A DNA stretch of 33,972 nucleotides from Patescibacteria group bacterium (GCA_018826255.1 JAHJZO010000042.1:1-33972), one strand, 5' to 3'. Shown: positions 714 through 31,165, numbered from the stretch's first letter. Notes: a model not told the origin generated them from the sequence alone. A program made the numbers and translations.

Positions 714-2466
714 CTATTTTATAGAGTTTATTGGAAACACTTTGAAATTCTTCCATCAGCTGATTCATATCAAGGCCTTCTTCAGCCTCGCATTTTCTTA
801 TTTGCTGACCGATTTTTTGCAAATTTTCTTTGTGGCGTTCGCGTTCGATCTCTTTAATTAAAAGCTTCACTTCTTCGCCGATATCAAAATCGTGATCCGC
901 TTTTTCCAACTCGTAATCGCCGGCGAGGTACAAAAAGTCCAGTCGCGGGCGCAAATCCGGGGAAAGCGCCGCTCTCGTCGCGGAAAATTCATTTTGATTC
1001 GCCGCCAGAGCGCTCAAAATTTCAAAATCGTTTTTGGGCAGAACGGCAGCCGCTTTAATCGCTTCGGCGATTAATTCCGGCTTTTTTAATAATAACGCTA
1101 AAAGGCGTTCGCTCAAAATTTCTTTCCGCCCCCGTGCCGATATTGCCGGTCGTTGAGACGAAGCGACATTGGCCATTTCGGTTTTTTCTATTTCTATTCT
1201 TTCCATCTCTTCTTTTAAATCACTTTCTGAAATACCGAGCCGCAGCGACAATTCCCTGAGCCAGCCGCTTCTTTCCACGGCGCTGGGCAAGCGTTTTATT
1301 TCGGAAAGCAAAGTTAAAGCAATAAATTTTTTCCCTTCGATTTTGTCGGTTGAAAATTTTCCGAACGCCCGGTTGAAATAATATGCCATAATTGGCTGGC
1401 TTTCCGAAACAAGTTTTATAAACTCTCCCGGCCGTTCTTTAACGAAATCGGCGGGGTCTTTACCGGAAGAAATATCCAAAACCGAAACCCCGAATCCCAA
1501 TTCATTAGCCAAATCAACGCCACGTTTGGTGGCGCGAAAACCGGCGTCATCCACATCAAAAGCCAAAATCAAATTATTGGTAAGCCGTTTCAAAATTGAA
1601 AGGTGATTTTCGGTTAAAGCCGTACCCGATGTCGCTACAATATTTTTTATTCCGTCTTGCCATGGCAGAATTGCGTCCATTTGTCCCTCAACCAAAACTA
1701 CTTTGTCGGCTTTTCTGATTTCCGTTTTTGCTTTATCAAAACCGTAAAGAACCTTGCTTTTACTATACAAAATCGTTTCCGGGGAATTAACATATTTACC
1801 GCTGTCGGCTCTTTCGGTTTTTGAAGGTATAACATCGCTCATGATGCGGCCGGAAAAAGCCACCACGCGCCCGTTGGAATCAAAAATCGGGAACATCAGG
1901 CGGTTTCTAAATCGGTCGTGATATCTGTCGCCCCGCAAAATCAAGCCGGCTTTTTCTATTTCCGTTTCGCGATAGCCCTGCTTTAATAAAAATGACAATA
2001 GCGAGCTCCAAGAATCCGGCGCGTAACCGAGACGCCATTCGCTTATGGTTTTCTCTTGTGCTCCCCTTCCGCGAAGATAGTCCAAGATAACGGAAGCGCT
2101 ATTTAATGAAGCGGTAAAAAATTGAGTCGCCTTTTCGCAGATTTCGTAAATTCTGTCTTTTTCGGTCCGCAGTTTCGGATCGCTGTATTTCAAAGCCACT
2201 CCTGCTTTTTCCGCCAAAATTTTCAGCGCTTCCTTGAATTCAACGCCTTCAATTTTTTGAACAAATGTGAAAATGTCGCCACCTTCGGCGCAACCGAAGC
2301 AATGCCAGTTTTGGCGCGACGGCGAAACCATAAATGACGGGGTTTTTTCATTATGAAAAGGACACAATCCTTTGTGGTTGATGCCGGCTTTTTGCAGACG
2401 AATGTAACCGGAAATTACGTCAACTATATTAAGTTTTTCCTTTATCTCTTGAACCTGATCAGACAT
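697..2466 (-). CDS. dnaG: DNA primase
   Basis: CHC2 zinc finger ([16 protein letters not shown]), [31 protein letters not shown] and FDVDDAG; dnaG-rpoD synteny. Confidence 0.98.
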
Positions 2467-9700: not shown

Positions 9701-9742
9701 AATTACATATCTGATATGCTATAGCATTCTATATATGTAATT
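9701..9742. repeat. 42-bp imperfect palindrome in the divergent intergenic region upstream of dnaE
   Basis: AATTACATAT-ctgat-ATGCTATAGCAT-tctat-ATATGTAATT. Confidence 0.75.
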
Positions 9743-22342: not shown

Positions 22343-23380
22343 TCAAAATTGTTTTAAGAATCTAAAGTCGCTTGAATAAAAAAGCCGGATATCGCTTATG
22401 CCGTAATAAATCATGGATAAGCGGTCTAAGCCAACGCCGAAAGCGAATCCTTGCTGTTTGCCCGGAATATAGCCCGCCGCCTTAAAAACTTTGGGATGAA
22501 CCATGCCGGCTCCGGCCACTTCAAGCCATTTGGAACCGGTCTCCAGCTTAATATCCACTTCAATGCCCGGTTCAACAAAGGGAAAATATCCCGGCCTAAA
22601 TCTGATTTCAACCTTCTTTTTATTAAAAAATCTTTTAAAAAATTCTTCAAAAATGGCTTTCAGATTGGCCAGAGAAATATCTTCGCCGACCATAAGCCCT
22701 TCAATCTGATGGAATTGAATTTCATGGGAAGCGTCGGTGGCTTCATGGCGATAAACGCGGCCGGGGACGATAATCCGCAATGGAGGATTATTTTTTTCCA
22801 TATAACGCGCCTGCATCGGACTGGTGTGGGTTCTTAACAACAAATGTTGTTTCGGATTTTGGATTTCAGATTTCGGATTTTTAATCCAGAATGTGTCCTG
22901 CATCTCTCGCGCCGGATGGTCTTTGGAGATATTCAAAGCGTCAAAATTATAATATTCGCTTTCAATTTCCGAACCGAAAACAACCGAAAAACCCATTGAT
23001 TGGAAAATGTCCTCAATGCGGCGTTCGACTTTTGTCAAAGGATGAAGATGCCCCAGCGAAACACTCCTGCCGGGCATGGTAACATCAATTCCCTCTTTCT
23101 TAAGTTTTTCTTCAACAAATTTGTCTTTCAATTCTACCGATTTTTTGTTGATTAAATTTTCTAAGTCATTCCTTACGGAATTGAGACGGCGGCCGTTATG
23201 GGCTTTCAACTCTTCGGGAATGCCCGGGAGTTCTTTAATAAGGTCATTTAACTCGCCTTTGCGGCCGAGATATTTGACCCTTATCTCGTCAAGACGCACT
23301 AAATCAAGCGCTCGGCTCACCGCTTCTTTCACTTTTTTTTCCAAGATATTTATTTTTTCATCAAAATTTTCAACTGCCAT
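22343..23380 (-). CDS. pheS: Phenylalanine--tRNA ligase alpha subunit
   Basis: HPAREMQDTF, LRTHTSP.Q, FHQIEGL, FRPGYFPFVEP, GAGMVHP, GFAFG.G.DR; start ATG 23380. Confidence 0.98.
   Translation of the reverse strand: MAVENFDEKINILEKKVKEAVSRALDLVRLDEIRVKYLGRKGELNDLIKELPGIPEELKAHNGRRLNSVRNDLENLINKKSVELKDKFVEEKLKKEGIDVTMPGRSVSLGHLHPLTKVERRIEDIFQSMGFSVVFGSEIESEYYNFDALNISKDHPAREMQDTFWIKNPKSEIQNPKQHLLLRTHTSPMQARYMEKNNPPLRIIVPGRVYRHEATDASHEIQFHQIEGLMVGEDISLANLKAIFEEFFKRFFNKKKVEIRFRPGYFPFVEPGIEVDIKLETGSKWLEVAGAGMVHPKVFKAAGYIPGKQQGFAFGVGLDRLSMIYYGISDIRLFYSSDFRFLKQF
22853..22880 (-). repeat. Four tandem heptamers inside pheS
   Basis: Minus strand AAATCCG AAATCTG AAATCCA AAATCCG, read as NPKSEIQNPK. 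Confidence 0.8.
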
Positions 23381-23556
23381 ATTAAGAGTCCGAAACAAAC
23401 CAATCCTATTACCAAACTTACGCATAAAACAACGGCGCCGAACACGCCGGCATTTTGGGGGTTAGTCAGTAAAATAACGCTAAAAAAAGACGCCCAAGCC
23501 AAGATATTCGCGAAAATTAGGGCTATTAAATGCGCTTTTCCACCATCCCAAAACAT
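23350..23556 (-). CDS. Small two-TM hypothetical protein, first gene of the pheST operon
   Basis: Two hydrophobic helices around NP; consensus promoter directly upstream; overlaps the pheS start. Confidence 0.65.
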   Translation of the reverse strand: MFWDGGKAHLIALIFANILAWASFFSVILLTNPQNAGVFGAVVLCVSLVIGLVCFGLLIWQLKILMKK

Positions 23557-23637: not shown

Positions 23638-24300
23638 CTTACTCTCTACAGCTTCCGCTGCTCCGCCATAATGGCGAATTTGGAGTCTGGACTTTCTCTT
23701 CGCCCCCTATAAATATAGGTTGGGCGCCTGCCGTTAAGTCTCTACACCTTTCCATCCTTTTGATATCAGGAGGACTTGGCTCGGGATTGCCCATTTTGGG
23801 TTTCCCCGAATTTGACAGGTTATCACGCGCGAATTTCTTCGCGCGCAGCCCATTGCAAAATTAAATCCCAAGCGTCGCGATAATCTGCCGAGAGAGGTTT
23901 TCTTTGACGCTTCTTTTCCTCAACAAAATGGATAACACTGCCGTAGGCGATAAACGCCTCAATGGGTAAAACATAAAATATGTTTGGCCCATTTAGATAA
24001 ATTACGGCAAAGTCAAAATCGGATTTTTTGTATGGTTCGCGCAACATAAGGCGTCTATTTGTCTTAGTTCTGCGATTATCTACAACAAAATTTCCTGACT
24101 TTTTATCCAACCATGCTGATTTGATTTGGATTTTTACCAGCTTGCCCCTTACATCCAAAACTAAATCATATGGAAGCCGATCGCCTAAAGGTTTTAGTAC
24201 TGCCCAGCCGTGTTCTAAAGTCCTCATAATCACGGCCTGTTCAGCTATGTCTCCTTTAAGTTTTGTATCCATTATTCAGGATTTTAATTTTGCGGAATCG
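23638..24300 (-). mobile_element. Group I self-splicing intron (663 nt) between U33 and C34 of tRNA-fMet
   Basis: 5' exon ends in U and the intron ends in G. IGS AUG-GGCU (23853-23847), P2 GCGCGAA-GAAA-UUCGCGC, P3 CCUGUC/GGCAGG, P4 UUCGGG/CCCGAG, P5 CCCA/UGGG, R element GUAGAGACU, S element AAGAGAAAGUCC, P8 CGCCC/GGGCG, P9 hairpins. Confidence 0.95.
23823..24272 (-). CDS. Group I intron-encoded PD-(D/E)XK homing endonuclease, I-Ssp6803I-like
   Basis: 149 aa: TKLKGDIAEQ, PLGDRLPYDLV.D, KIQIKS, VDNRRTKTNRR, Y...DFDF, KRQRKP. This matches my recollection of the Synechocystis tRNA-fMet intron endonuclease in length, motifs and location. Confidence 0.92.
   Translation of the reverse strand: MDTKLKGDIAEQAVIMRTLEHGWAVLKPLGDRLPYDLVLDVRGKLVKIQIKSAWLDKKSGNFVVDNRRTKTNRRLMLREPYKKSDFDFAVIYLNGPNIFYVLPIEAFIAYGSVIHFVEEKKRQRKPLSADYRDAWDLILQWAAREEIRA

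Positions 24301-26917: not shown

Positions 26918-26918
<1 letters not shown>
26622..26918 (-). CDS. gatC: Asp/Glu-tRNA amidotransferase subunit C
   Basis: EV.KIA.LARL, C-terminal AP.....YFKVP; upstream of gatA. Confidence 0.95.
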
Positions 26919-29076
<2,158 letters not shown>

Positions 29077-29083
29077 TCAAATT

Positions 29084-29127
29084 TCCCCATTTCTGACTAC
29101 TTATATCCCCATCTCTGATTACTTATT
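29084..29127. repeat. 2 x 22-bp tandem direct repeat upstream of ligA
   Basis: TCCCCATTTCTGACTACTTATA / TCCCCATCTCTGATTACTTATT (19/22 identical). Confidence 0.8.
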
Positions 29128-29162
29128 TCTTCACGCCTAATTTTGATTATCTGTCCAACCAG

Positions 29163-29200
29163 TTGTATCACAAGATGCCTCGAGGTTAGTTATGATACAA
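29163..29200. repeat. Palindromic repeat copy 1, downstream of the PaaX/Cas2-like gene
   Basis: TTGTATCACAA-gatg-CCTCGAGG-ttag-TTATGATACAA. Confidence 0.85.
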
Positions 29201-29244
29201 GAATAAGATATTTAAAATAAAAGCTTATGAGAGTTCAAGAAACC

Positions 29245-29811
29245 TTATAAAAGTTTAAGATTGAAAATTTTATACAAATCCCCCTCCCTCTTATCTACGG
29301 ACTCAACAATACAATAATTAACAAATCGATTAATTGATAAAAATTCACAGATAAAATCTATTTCATCGCGACAATCATGCGGATAAATAAAGACACTTTC
29401 TTGCAACGCGTAAAAACCAATGTCTTTTAATTTTTTAGAAATGGCTCGTCTTTCTTTTCTCTTTTTGTCGGGGATATCAAAAATTACTAGCCGCCATTTT
29501 TTATCCCAAGCTTTGGGTTTTATCAATTCCATATTATCGTAATCAAAATTTTTTATTACTTTTTTTCCATTGCTGGTAATTTTTATATAAAGCTTGTCAT
29601 TTTTCTCCACTAATTCAACTAATCTTTTTTGATTCAATCGCCTTATGGCATTGTAAATAAGACGGCGATCTATTTTGTTCCAATTCTTGCGCCATTTGAT
29701 TAACGGTTTTAACATTTGAGCCGCATTCGGTAAAAATAATGAAGACAATACAACTGGACCGGCGGCAGCTATAAATAAAATTTCTCTGGTCAATGATTTG
29801 CCTCGTAACAT
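29245..29811 (-). CDS. PaaX-family-like regulator (winged helix plus Cas2-like ferredoxin domain)
   Basis: wHTH-like YNAIRRL.QKRLV...IKIT.NG, then WDKKWRLVIFDIP..KR.ER....KL...GF..LQESVF.YP. Confidence 0.85.
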   Translation of the reverse strand: MLRGKSLTREILFIAAAGPVVLSSLFLPNAAQMLKPLIKWRKNWNKIDRRLIYNAIRRLNQKRLVELVEKNDKLYIKITSNGKKVIKNFDYDNMELIKPKAWDKKWRLVIFDIPDKKRKERRAISKKLKDIGFYALQESVFIYPHDCRDEIDFICEFLSINRFVNYCIVESVDKREGDLYKIFNLKLL

Positions 29812-29855
29812 AATTTCAGAATCTTGTAGTTTATTTTTTAATAATTTTTCTTTAA

Positions 29856-29884
29856 TTATAATACATACTTTTTGTAATCACAAG
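29856..29884 (-). promoter_or_regulatory. sigma70 promoter of the PaaX-like gene, with -35 inside repeat copy 2
   Basis: Minus strand TTGTGA-17 bp-TATAAT. Confidence 0.65.
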
Positions 29885-29910
29885 CGACCTCGAGGTTAAT
29901 TGTGATACTA
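29872..29910. repeat. Palindromic repeat copy 2, upstream of the PaaX/Cas2-like gene
   Basis: TTGTA-ATCACAA-gcg-ACCTCGAGGT-taa-TTGTGAT-ACTA; same orientation as copy 1. Confidence 0.85.
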
Positions 29911-29924
29911 GAAAATATTGAATA

Positions 29925-29955
29925 TAAAAATGCCTCTTCCGAAGAAGAGGCATTT
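29925..29955 (-). terminator. Strong intrinsic terminator
   Basis: Minus strand AAATGCCTCTTC-TTCG-GAAGAGGCATTT then TTA: 12-bp stem with a C(UUCG)G loop. Confidence 0.85.
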
Positions 29956-30111
29956 GCCTTTTTATGTTCCATAGCTATTTCTAGCCAGAGGCAGAATTTT
30001 ACTTGGCGCCCTCTCCAAGGTTCTTTATCGTCTAATGACCATCACCTCCTTTTCATCTCAAGCCGCAGGGCACTGATGGCAACACTGCGGCCACTAAAAA
30101 ACTTCACTGTA
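29925..30111 (-). ncRNA. Candidate ~185-nt structured small RNA or leader of unknown family
   Basis: Bounded by a consensus promoter and a strong terminator; several hairpins; only 4-5 codon ORFs wholly within it. Confidence 0.45.
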
Positions 30112-30116
30112 TTTGC

Positions 30117-30145
30117 AGTATAGCACAAACAATAATGTTTGTCAA
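30117..30145 (-). promoter_or_regulatory. Near-consensus sigma70 promoter with overlapping inverted repeat
   Basis: TTGACA-17 bp-TATACT with TGn; ACAAACA-N4-TGTTTGT at 30125-30142. Confidence 0.75.
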
Positions 30146-30175
30146 TAGTTTAAGCAATATATACCACAATATGGC

Positions 30176-31165
30176 TTATTTGAGGTAAATCGCTCTGTTT
30201 TGATTGTGTTCTTCGAGGGTTTTGGAAAAAATGGTTATGCCGTCTTTGGCGGAGAGATAATACCAATACGGGCTCGCTTCCGGAGAAAGCGCCGCCTTGA
30301 TAGCGGAGATGCCCGGGTTGGCAATAGGCCCCTTTGGCAAACCGCGGTAAAAATAGGTATTGTATCGCGAATCTATTTTCTTGTCGGAGGCAACAATTTC
30401 ATTGCGGCCGGTGATATAAACCAGCGTGGCATCAACCTGTAGAGGAATATTCGCTTTAAGTCGTTTCCATAATATGCCGGAAACAATTAACCGGTCTGAA
30501 TCTTTTGGAATCTCTTTTTCAATCAGAGAAGCCATAGTTAAAATCTCATATGTGCTGTAAGAAGAAGTTTTTATGGCCGTCTTCAAATCCGGAGTTAATT
30601 TATTATTAAGATTACCAACCATTTTACCAACTATATCAGACAAAGCTGCGTCCTTGAAAAAACGGTAGGAATCGGGGAATAAATATCCTTCCAGAGATGC
30701 GGTCTTTGGCTTGTCGGATAAGATTTCCGAAATATTTTCCAAAAATTTAAAACTCGCTAGTGCGTTCGGATTGGTCAAATTAGCCCTTATTAATCTATCC
30801 TCAATTTGTTTTAAATTAAACCCCTCAGGAATTACGATTAAGACCTCGTTGGTGCCGCCCAGAGCCAATATATCTCCAATATCGCGAACGGACATTTTTG
30901 GCGATAATTTATATTCTCCTGGTTTCAAATCATACTGATTCAAAGACAAGAAAACATAAAGGCGGAAAAGAAAGGGGCTTTTTATCAATCCGGCATTTTT
31001 TAAATTTTCGGCGATTGTCTGGGCCGACTCCCCTTTTTCAACTTTCAAGATTATTGTTTCGCCCGAACTGCTTAACGGCGTTCTTATTTTCCACCAAAAA
31101 ATAAAAAGCGTGGCAAAAATAATAACAAAAAATATTAAAATGACATATGCGATTTTTTTACTCAT
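30176..31165 (-). CDS. mltG: Endolytic transglycosylase MltG (YceG family)
   Basis: N-terminal TM, IPEG, LEGYLFPDSY, MASLIEKE, LQVDAT..Y, YNTY...GLP.GPI.NPG. Confidence 0.96.
   Translation of the reverse strand: MSKKIAYVILIFFVIIFATLFIFWWKIRTPLSSSGETIILKVEKGESAQTIAENLKNAGLIKSPFLFRLYVFLSLNQYDLKPGEYKLSPKMSVRDIGDILALGGTNEVLIVIPEGFNLKQIEDRLIRANLTNPNALASFKFLENISEILSDKPKTASLEGYLFPDSYRFFKDAALSDIVGKMVGNLNNKLTPDLKTAIKTSSYSTYEILTMASLIEKEIPKDSDRLIVSGILWKRLKANIPLQVDATLVYITGRNEIVASDKKIDSRYNTYFYRGLPKGPIANPGISAIKAALSPEASPYWYYLSAKDGITIFSKTLEEHNQNRAIYLK

Follow-up and report, generated by a model that had tools for sequence, protein, structure and literature searches.

Why would a small gene carry the same long palindrome both before its start and behind its stop codon? 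The question is raised by a 33,972-nucleotide (nt) contig of a Patescibacteria group bacterium (GCA_018826255.1, JAHJZO010000042.1), hereafter the window. The source organism is an ultra-small groundwater bacterium, and the window is contig C15 of its draft genome (G000; 536,896 bases in 49 contigs, 40% GC, 96.8% complete). An initial annotation had described a gene for a winged-helix plus Cas2-like protein, lying between ligA and mltG and bracketed by two palindromic direct repeats, and had read the repeats either as operators bound by the protein or as the ends of a one-gene mobile cassette. We found that this layout belongs to a large and apparently undescribed family in which each gene has a private palindrome, and we consider it probable that the protein binds this palindrome and represses its own gene.

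One gene between two copies of a palindrome

The block contains the following features; conservation refers to L066, the locus of a relative whose protein is 91% identical to the 188-amino-acid (aa) protein encoded here (called mini-PaaX for reasons given below), and to the related genome G010.

29167..29196, no strand: downstream palindrome, 49 nt past the stop codon; ATCACAA-GATG-CCTCGAGG-TTAG-TTATGAT; 30/30 positions kept in L066
29245..29811, minus strand: mini-PaaX gene, 188 aa; predicted winged helix at aa ~7-88, Cas2-like PaaX_M domain at aa ~100-176, without PaaX_C
29877..29906, no strand: upstream palindrome, candidate operator; ATCACAA-GCGA-CCTCGAGG-TTAA-TTGTGAT; 29/30 positions kept in L066
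29872..29929: upstream copy of the direct repeat at its full extent (AT-rich lead plus palindrome); partner at 29163-29222, from a local alignment with two small gaps
29928..29955, bidirectional: terminator hairpin with a 12-bp stem, 22 nt before the upstream palindrome; ends the upstream transcription unit; kept in G010

A repeat search of the window returned one direct-repeat family, in which 29167-29203 and 29877-29913 are identical at 31 of 37 positions (84% of 37 nt). The match given by the initial annotation was thereby reproduced, and the repeat proved even longer than described. Both copies take the 30-bp form ATCAYAA-N4-CCTCGAGG-N4-TTRTGAT, with the CCTCGAGG core set between 4-nt linkers that lack symmetry. 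The arms of the upstream copy (ATCACAA/TTGTGAT) make a perfect dyad, and those of the downstream copy (ATCACAA/TTATGAT) have one C.A mismatch; the reported dyad symmetry is thus present in both. With up to three mismatches allowed, the dyad pattern matched only these two copies in the window (0 matches in 100 shuffles) and occurred three times in the whole genome of 536,896 bases, the third time at G000:C11:1122-1151, versus 0 times for a backwards-pattern control. The core CCTCGAGG itself has four occurrences in the genome, three of them within the motif. The local alignment score of the focal repeat pair was 26 (control over 514 open reading frames [ORFs]: median, 8; 99th percentile, 20.5). 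A single ORF (29245-29811, minus strand) lies between the copies, and the site-gene-site block is AT rich, as had been noted (29 to 32% GC versus 40% in the genome).

The enclosed protein matched PaaX_M (PF20803) in Pfam with 76.6 bits (E = 1.6e-21; aa 100-176, profile positions 2-78 of 83) and CRISPR_Cas2 (PF09827) with 29.5 bits against a cut-off of 23.8 (E = 8.3e-07), in agreement with the initial description. The NCBIfam Cas2 model TIGR01573 was also passed (28.8 bits versus 24.5), and automatic annotation would therefore name the protein Cas2. The PaaX equivalog TIGR02277 (NCBIfam) gave 35.4 bits, far below its cut-off of 264.55. The protein stops 12 residues past PaaX_M, and PaaX_C (PF08223) had no match anywhere in the genome. 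Only PaaX_M and Cas2 passed the Pfam thresholds, and neither Pfam nor NCBIfam detected a transposase, integrase, or HUH domain in the 188 aa. In an AlphaFold2 model built from 28 family sequences, the C-terminal beta-alpha-beta-beta-alpha-beta domain was modeled confidently (predicted local distance difference test [pLDDT] score, 80-94). The top Foldseek match was Escherichia coli PaaX (8a39; E = 7.9e-6, 192 columns, template modeling [TM] score of 0.38), followed at ranks 2 to 12 by Cas2 structures, with the PaaX-like Rv0674 also among the matches. A homodimer prediction scored 0.17 against a mark of 0.42 and was counted neither way. Judged from its sequence, the protein is a predicted winged helix joined to a Cas2-like, putative dimerization domain, of PaaX lineage. 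It belongs neither to PaaX proper nor to CRISPR Cas2, and we call it a two-domain mini-PaaX.

The initial annotation had also remarked on a resemblance to repeats of CRISPR (clustered regularly interspaced short palindromic repeats) loci. We reject this relation: the missing cas1 of the window extends to the whole 96.8%-complete genome, where no Cas1 was found, and the three motif copies are dispersed rather than arranged in an array.

Private palindrome pairs across the family

A tblastn search identified seven paralogs in G000, 34 to 68% identical to the query (closest, 68%); for these and for all relatives outside the window, genes were delimited by crude ORF calls. Each of the seven is closely preceded by a distinct palindrome of its own, which recurs just past the gene's stop; for the C11 paralog, the upstream copy is on the far side of a contig break, where C1 ends. 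When the upstream 130-nt flank of each of 514 crude ORFs was compared with its downstream counterpart, five paralogs ranked 2nd, 3rd, 4th, 7th, and 10th, and the C32 paralog scored 32.5 once its start was corrected (control 99th percentile, 20.5). Two IS200/RAYT-like genes with flanking hairpins were also among the top scorers, so the scan detects such layouts. These two genes (G000:C1:45770-46450 and G000:C8:4796-5476; 226 aa each) are each flanked by short hairpin repeats of their own and have a visible HUH-type motif.

The layout extends well beyond this genome. Among 12 genomes of the taxonomic family, 10 contained a total of 62 mini-PaaX matches, with up to 11 per genome, and a clear palindrome pair was present at 24 of the 29 loci examined. 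Across Patescibacteria, one peptide pattern retrieved at least 587 relatives, from which 80 loci were kept (79 with both flanks). Against 469 mismatched-locus controls, the flanks of 65 of these 79 loci scored above the 99th percentile and those of 41 above the maximum. The expectation that each paralog has paired palindromes of its own, which followed from the initial annotation, was thus upheld at all three levels. The palindromes are also specific to their genes. An ortholog in G004, 78% identical to the window's protein, has three sites that all contain the core CCTATAGG, versus CCTCGAGG in all three sites in G000. We found no description of this protein family or layout in the literature on PaaX/Cas2-like proteins in Patescibacteria, including excerpts of one article (PMC13059738).

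To describe the anatomy of the sites, we centered 64 pairs and kept the 56 that had at least 24 of 40 identical positions, leaving out 8 mis-centered pairs that inflated the count of symmetric changes. Over the 56 pairs, 85-98% of cells were complementary at positions 1-4 from the center; the share fell to 40-63% at positions 5-8 and rose again to 72-83% at positions 9-17. The commonest core hexamers were CGATCG (51) and CTATAG (18), along with the hybrids CTATCG and CGATAG (17). A palindromic center with free linkers fits double-stranded DNA that is read by a 2-fold symmetric protein, unlike a hairpin loop. Differences between the two copies of a pair concentrate in the linkers. Private sites are 30-42 bp long, and the centers of paired sites are about 585-860 bp apart, with no helical phasing of the two sites (Rayleigh P = 0.39-0.89). 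The copies stand in direct orientation in 24 pairs and inverted in 6 (undecidable in 26). Symmetry was slightly greater in downstream than in upstream copies (31 versus 15; Wilcoxon P = 0.02, with relatives that are not independent). When the core base was compared with protein columns in 51 related sequences, a comparison confounded by descent, the ten best columns were all N-terminal (aa 13-62), with 0 in the Cas2-like domain.

At the focal locus, the upstream palindrome overlaps the following site.

29855..29883, minus strand: promoter-like site of the mini-PaaX gene; TTGTGA-17-TATAAT, 10/12; 43 nt before the ATG at 29811

The -35 hexamer (TTGTGA) is the promoter-proximal arm of the palindrome, as the initial annotation had stated, and the -10 hexamer is kept in L066. 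The same placement recurs in the family: a -10-like hexamer was found 12-45 nt from the center of the upstream copy on the gene side in 35 of the 56 pairs, compared with 18 of 56 on the mirror side. We therefore favor the following model, which we hold to be probable on the basis of sequence comparisons. A symmetric mini-PaaX oligomer would bind its private 30-bp dyad, and binding at the upstream copy, where the inner arm doubles as the -35 hexamer, would shut off the gene's own promoter. The copy past the stop codon and the third copy on contig C11 would be further sites of the same protein.

Downstream copies, solo sites, and gene ends

The second copy of each pair requires its own account. 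In the initial annotation, it faced ligA-gatCA as an operator, and one could extend this idea to a second promoter that drives ligA-gatCA, with the protein as a dedicated regulator of DNA ligase and amidotransferase. A promoter-like match in the same register as that of the regulator's gene does point at ligA.

29146..29173, minus strand: weak second promoter-like match toward ligA; TTGTGA-16-GATAAT, 9/12; -10 not clearly kept in L066; function doubtful

The next gene is moreover co-directional for all seven G000 paralogs (ligA, ftsZ, lepA, ileS, and others), and the G004 ortholog also lies upstream of ligA. However, seven of seven would be expected about 8% of the time at a rate of 70%, which is the rate for other neighbors in the same loci (152/217); the next gene itself was co-directional at 49 of 75 loci (65%). 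A -10-like hexamer accompanied downstream copies on the forward side in 15 of 56 pairs and on the mirror side in 16 of 56. Given neither -10 enrichment nor an orientation bias at the downstream copies, the family as a whole does not follow the pattern of an operator for the next gene. The downstream site is tied instead to the regulator's own stop (stop-to-center median, 37 nt; interquartile range, 29-56 nt) rather than to the start of the following gene (median gap, 194 nt). In the window, ligA (ATG at 29058) has a conserved, proximal promoter-like block of its own some 85 nt further on, immediately in front of the ATG, and this block is present in relatives both with and without the cassette. 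We thus regard a dedicated ligA-gatCA operator as quite unlikely. Of the operator proposal in the initial annotation, the autoregulatory placement and the private pairs stand, and the role of the second copy as an operator facing the next gene does not hold as a general rule.

Two further observations concern the ligA side of the locus. Two tandem 22-nt units, 86% alike, lie at 29081-29124 between the downstream palindrome and the ligA promoter, where L066 has one unit's worth. In addition, two minus-strand ORFs (28573-29058 and 26918-28411) share ligA between them, where relatives show a single frame of ~705 aa. Contigs from three of four public runs contain one extra base (A or G) after 28582 at most or all of the depth, and the split is therefore most likely an assembly frameshift or a minor variant, not a broken gene.

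We searched G000 for additional sites using the arms and core of each palindrome type, named here after the contig of its paralog. There were 3 sites of type C15 (the window's own), 7 of C47, 5 of C32, 5-7 of C33, 3-5 of C28, about 5 of C5, and 3 of C11, which includes one to five extra solo sites for each type. Of 35 sites, 33 lay outside crude ORFs, and coding sequence makes up 93% of the genome. A search within 2.5 kb of 56 relatives gave only three extra copies, too few to use. One solo site of another type is in the window itself.

9701-9742: 42-bp palindrome of type C33, the type whose paralog on contig C33 lies between ftsA and ftsZ

The gap between this site and the dnaE start (9815) is 73 nt in the window, and the position is kept in G000, G010, and G011 (93-94 nt before dnaE); in all three genomes, the site lies in a divergent promoter region. 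In G000 and G011, a C33-type site also takes up the convergent junction behind jag, and another fills the 47 nt that separate the stops of gatB and miaA in G011. Solo sites of type C15 occur 8-12 nt past the comEC stop in G008 and G006, which represent two genera and have different downstream neighbors. The third C15-type palindrome of G000 (C11:1122-1151) follows an IrrE/ImmA-like Peptidase_M78 gene (1221-1841, minus strand), 70 nt past its stop; the 23S rRNA, with its 5' end at 488 (minus strand, C11), begins about 630 nt downstream of the palindrome. A 96-aa ORF between the palindrome and the rRNA had no family match. Three solo copies of type C47 match perfectly over 39-44 nt. A pair of identical C47-type palindromes, 1.1 kb apart (C47:23031-24310), encloses no mini-PaaX gene; the stretch between them is GC richer, contains small minus-strand ORFs after AGGAGG-like sites, and had no match in Rfam, and a segment of ~100 nt from it is repeated at C47:11562-11821 and C46:2879-2985 (72-83% identity). 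Contigs end at long perfect family palindromes in two assemblies (L152 and L155 of G011; C1 and C11 of G000). As the palindromes fragment assemblies, the site counts are lower bounds.

The positions of these sites suggest that many of them act at gene ends. Downstream copies at the regulator's stop, together with solo sites at convergent gene ends, suggest that the downstream site acts on the regulator's own unit, where it might be a roadblock against read-through into ligA-gatCA or a partner in a repression loop. One of these two roles is, in our assessment, the most likely one for the downstream site, ahead of an operator for a ligA promoter. A bolder version, in which the multi-paralog mini-PaaX family supplies sequence-specific transcription roadblocks or insulators to Rho-less Patescibacteria, beyond autorepression, strikes us as speculative and rather doubtful. 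A search of the genome for a Rho RNA-binding domain was negative; together with the solo sites at gene ends, this makes roadblock termination testable.

Several observations weigh against the autorepression model. The promoters are consensus matches only, with 8 in the region versus 4.9 expected, and the related genomes are not independent samples. In the protein, PaaX_N (PF07848) was absent among the Pfam matches at E values up to 1, and the N-terminal helix-helix-helix-hairpin (aa 7-88) was modeled with low confidence (pLDDT, about 42-66). Residues D112, S139, C147, and E150 of the Cas2-like domain are invariant in the family, which leaves a catalytic role possible. The 19 solo sites of G000 fell into 10 convergent, 2 divergent, and 7 tandem gaps by crude ORF calls, compared with 58, 58, and 414 among all gaps in the genome (Fisher test, convergent versus divergent, P = 0.03-0.055), and such a convergent excess is odd for a classical repressor. 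Finally, changes between the copies of a pair often preserve the dyad: this was true of 45 of 110 double differences, compared with 4-11 of 42-71 in shifted controls, and the 110 double differences themselves exceed the 65 expected. Simple half-site recognition predicts no such excess. Symmetric double changes can arise by template-switch correction of quasipalindromes, a known route of mutation.

These dyad-preserving double changes would also fit hairpins in RNA or single-stranded DNA, that is, terminators or stabilizers whose link with the gene is indirect. The three C15-type sites have modest predicted hairpins (-9.5 to -11.9 kcal/mol; z = -2.1 to -5.9), sites are found after stop codons and between convergent genes, and the missing Rho domain points the same way. 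The anatomy of the sites argues otherwise, as the dyad center, where a loop would tolerate any sequence, is palindromic (85-98% at positions 1-4), the linkers lack complementarity, and no T-run follows the sites. Their locations are no easier to reconcile with hairpins: the upstream copy precedes the -10 box and so falls outside the gene's own transcript, and the C33-type site before dnaE sits in a divergent promoter region in three genomes. Hairpins also leave unexplained why each palindrome type travels with its own paralog. Rfam at gathering thresholds, applied to the window and 12 further genome stretches, returned only rRNA, tRNAs, and one group I intron, and a permissive search of 29000-30250 gave subthreshold, chance-level matches only. 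We judge hairpins to be a very improbable explanation and retain binding of the palindromes by mini-PaaX as the preferred one.

Presence of the block and comparison with known systems

Is the block a mobile element? In such a scenario, the protein would be a site-specific nuclease or recombination factor of a selfish module resembling an insertion sequence (IS) or a repetitive extragenic palindromic (REP)-RAYT system, the palindromes would be the ends of the element, and solo palindromes would be nonautonomous copies or footprints of deletion between repeats. Autoregulation would then be a by-product; many insertion sequences regulate themselves through an end that overlaps the promoter. The block is indeed present or absent as a whole. 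G010 keeps the GC-rich stretch upstream, the flanking terminator, and the ligA promoter and lacks about 840 nt that correspond exactly to the site-gene-site block; mltG abuts ligA in G005, G006, G007, G008, and G011; and contigs of ~90%-alike relatives in two runs skip the block. Between L066 and G000, homology begins and stops at the outer edges of the palindromes. Several properties already described would also suit an element: the preponderance of direct over inverted pairs (24 versus 6, with 26 undecidable), solo sites at convergent junctions, as for REPs and miniature inverted-repeat transposable elements (MITEs), the three C47-type solo copies that are identical over 39-44 nt, the low GC content of the block, the recovery of two true IS200/RAYT-like genes by the same flank scan, and the aspartate after strand 1, which is invariant in the family, as in Cas2.

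The history of the locus reads differently. No target duplication is visible, and although empty ligA-mltG sites exist, none of them keeps a palindrome, contrary to the single retained repeat that the initial annotation had envisaged for a cassette. The nucleotide identity between G000 and G004, which is another genus, is 75.6% in the block, 73% in mltG, and 75-79% in ligA; block divergence thus equals flank divergence, which points to vertical descent and repeated loss. Most other paralogs keep their neighbors across genomes (ftsA-ftsZ, glyQS, gpmI-rpsL, and mutM-holA), and solo sites are conserved in place across genera. There are no near-identical gene copies (paralogs are at most 68% identical), the protein has no transposase, integrase, or HUH domain, and the concentration of copy differences in the linkers is expected from selection on contact positions. 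We found no spanning piece or joint that would indicate excision in the same strain in the contigs of four DNA runs; the two skipping joints came from the ~90%-alike relatives. The location of the unit shows no sign of change other than its presence or absence between mltG and ligA. Absence of the block in relatives is therefore the part of the cassette proposal that stood, and the lack of a retained repeat, the flank-like divergence, and the kept synteny of the paralogs went against it. The proposal is weak overall, and we consider a mobile module unlikely.

Two other features of the window were recorded. A candidate small RNA gene (29956-30145, minus strand) lies between mltG and the cassette, with a strong promoter match that includes a TG (TTGACA-17-TATACT; 30145..30117, 11/12). 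It spans a GC-richer stretch of ~160 nt, is closed by the 12-bp terminator at 29928-29955, and is partly kept in G010 (88% over 69 nt); it had no Rfam family, and a 73-aa ORF on the other strand had no Pfam match. The group I intron (23664-23892, minus strand; 64.8 bits in Rfam) overlaps an ORF for a PD-(D/E)XK endonuclease (23823-24272; PDDEXK_5, E = 4.4e-48) just upstream of pheS (22343-23425). ARAGORN detected no tRNA at this intron region (23664-24272).

The Patescibacteria (candidate phyla radiation [CPR]) have tiny genomes with few recognizable regulators, and the mini-PaaX family accounts for seven genes in 537 kb here and up to 11 in relatives. Their small target sets adjoin core genes, namely, ligA, ftsZ, dnaE, lepA, ileS, glyQS, rpsL, and infB. 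If mini-PaaX binds as proposed, these sites would constitute a first tractable regulatory code for these uncultured organisms as well as a natural panel of orthogonal repressor-operator pairs, a widespread misannotation as Cas2 would be corrected, and the need of a regulator for a site past its own stop would call for an explanation. If, in addition, the family worked as roadblocks or insulators, private palindromes at their own and a few other gene ends, many of them convergent junctions, would set where transcription stops, possibly conditionally, and read-through into housekeeping genes such as ligA, ftsZ, lepA, and ileS would be gated.

Known systems share parts of this arrangement. REP sequences occur with RAYT transposases, and there are insertion sequences with terminal repeats that overlap their promoters. 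In both cases, as here, a gene is flanked by palindromes that its product would recognize, and the same palindrome is scattered between genes, often at gene 3' ends. The mini-PaaX units differ in lacking an HUH/Y1 or DDE domain, in having one to five solo copies per type, in their palindromic center, and in their stable synteny. The lambda CI repressor acts at the operators OR and OL, between which repressors cooperate by DNA looping. As with CI, the predicted mini-PaaX sites flank the repressor's own gene, and one of them overlaps a promoter; the second mini-PaaX site, however, is 17-50 nt past the stop of a single small gene, and the two sites show no helical phasing.

Cas2 and PaaX resemble the protein itself. 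The C-terminal domain passes the cut-offs of both Cas2 models (PF09827 and TIGR01573) and matches Cas2 structures, whereas in mini-PaaX this domain is fused to a predicted winged helix and is encoded in a genome without Cas1 and without a repeat array. PaaX is the phenylacetyl-CoA-responsive repressor of paa operons. Like PaaX of E. coli W (8a39), mini-PaaX has a winged helix, in its case a predicted one, followed by a Cas2-like middle domain and, as its predicted operator, a long dyad with spaced arms. According to sections of a review (PMC9493321), E. coli PaaX binds TGATTC(N27)GAATCA, a long palindrome with spaced arms, and represses its own promoter through steric hindrance. PaaX is about 305-316 aa long and includes the PaaX_C effector domain, whereas mini-PaaX has 188 aa and no PaaX_C; mini-PaaX keeps the Cas2-type aspartate (FDIP) where E. 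coli PaaX has LLLSEG. The mini-PaaX proteins also differ from PaaX in their number and layout, with seven paralogs in 537 kb, each with private sites and each gene bracketed by two of them.

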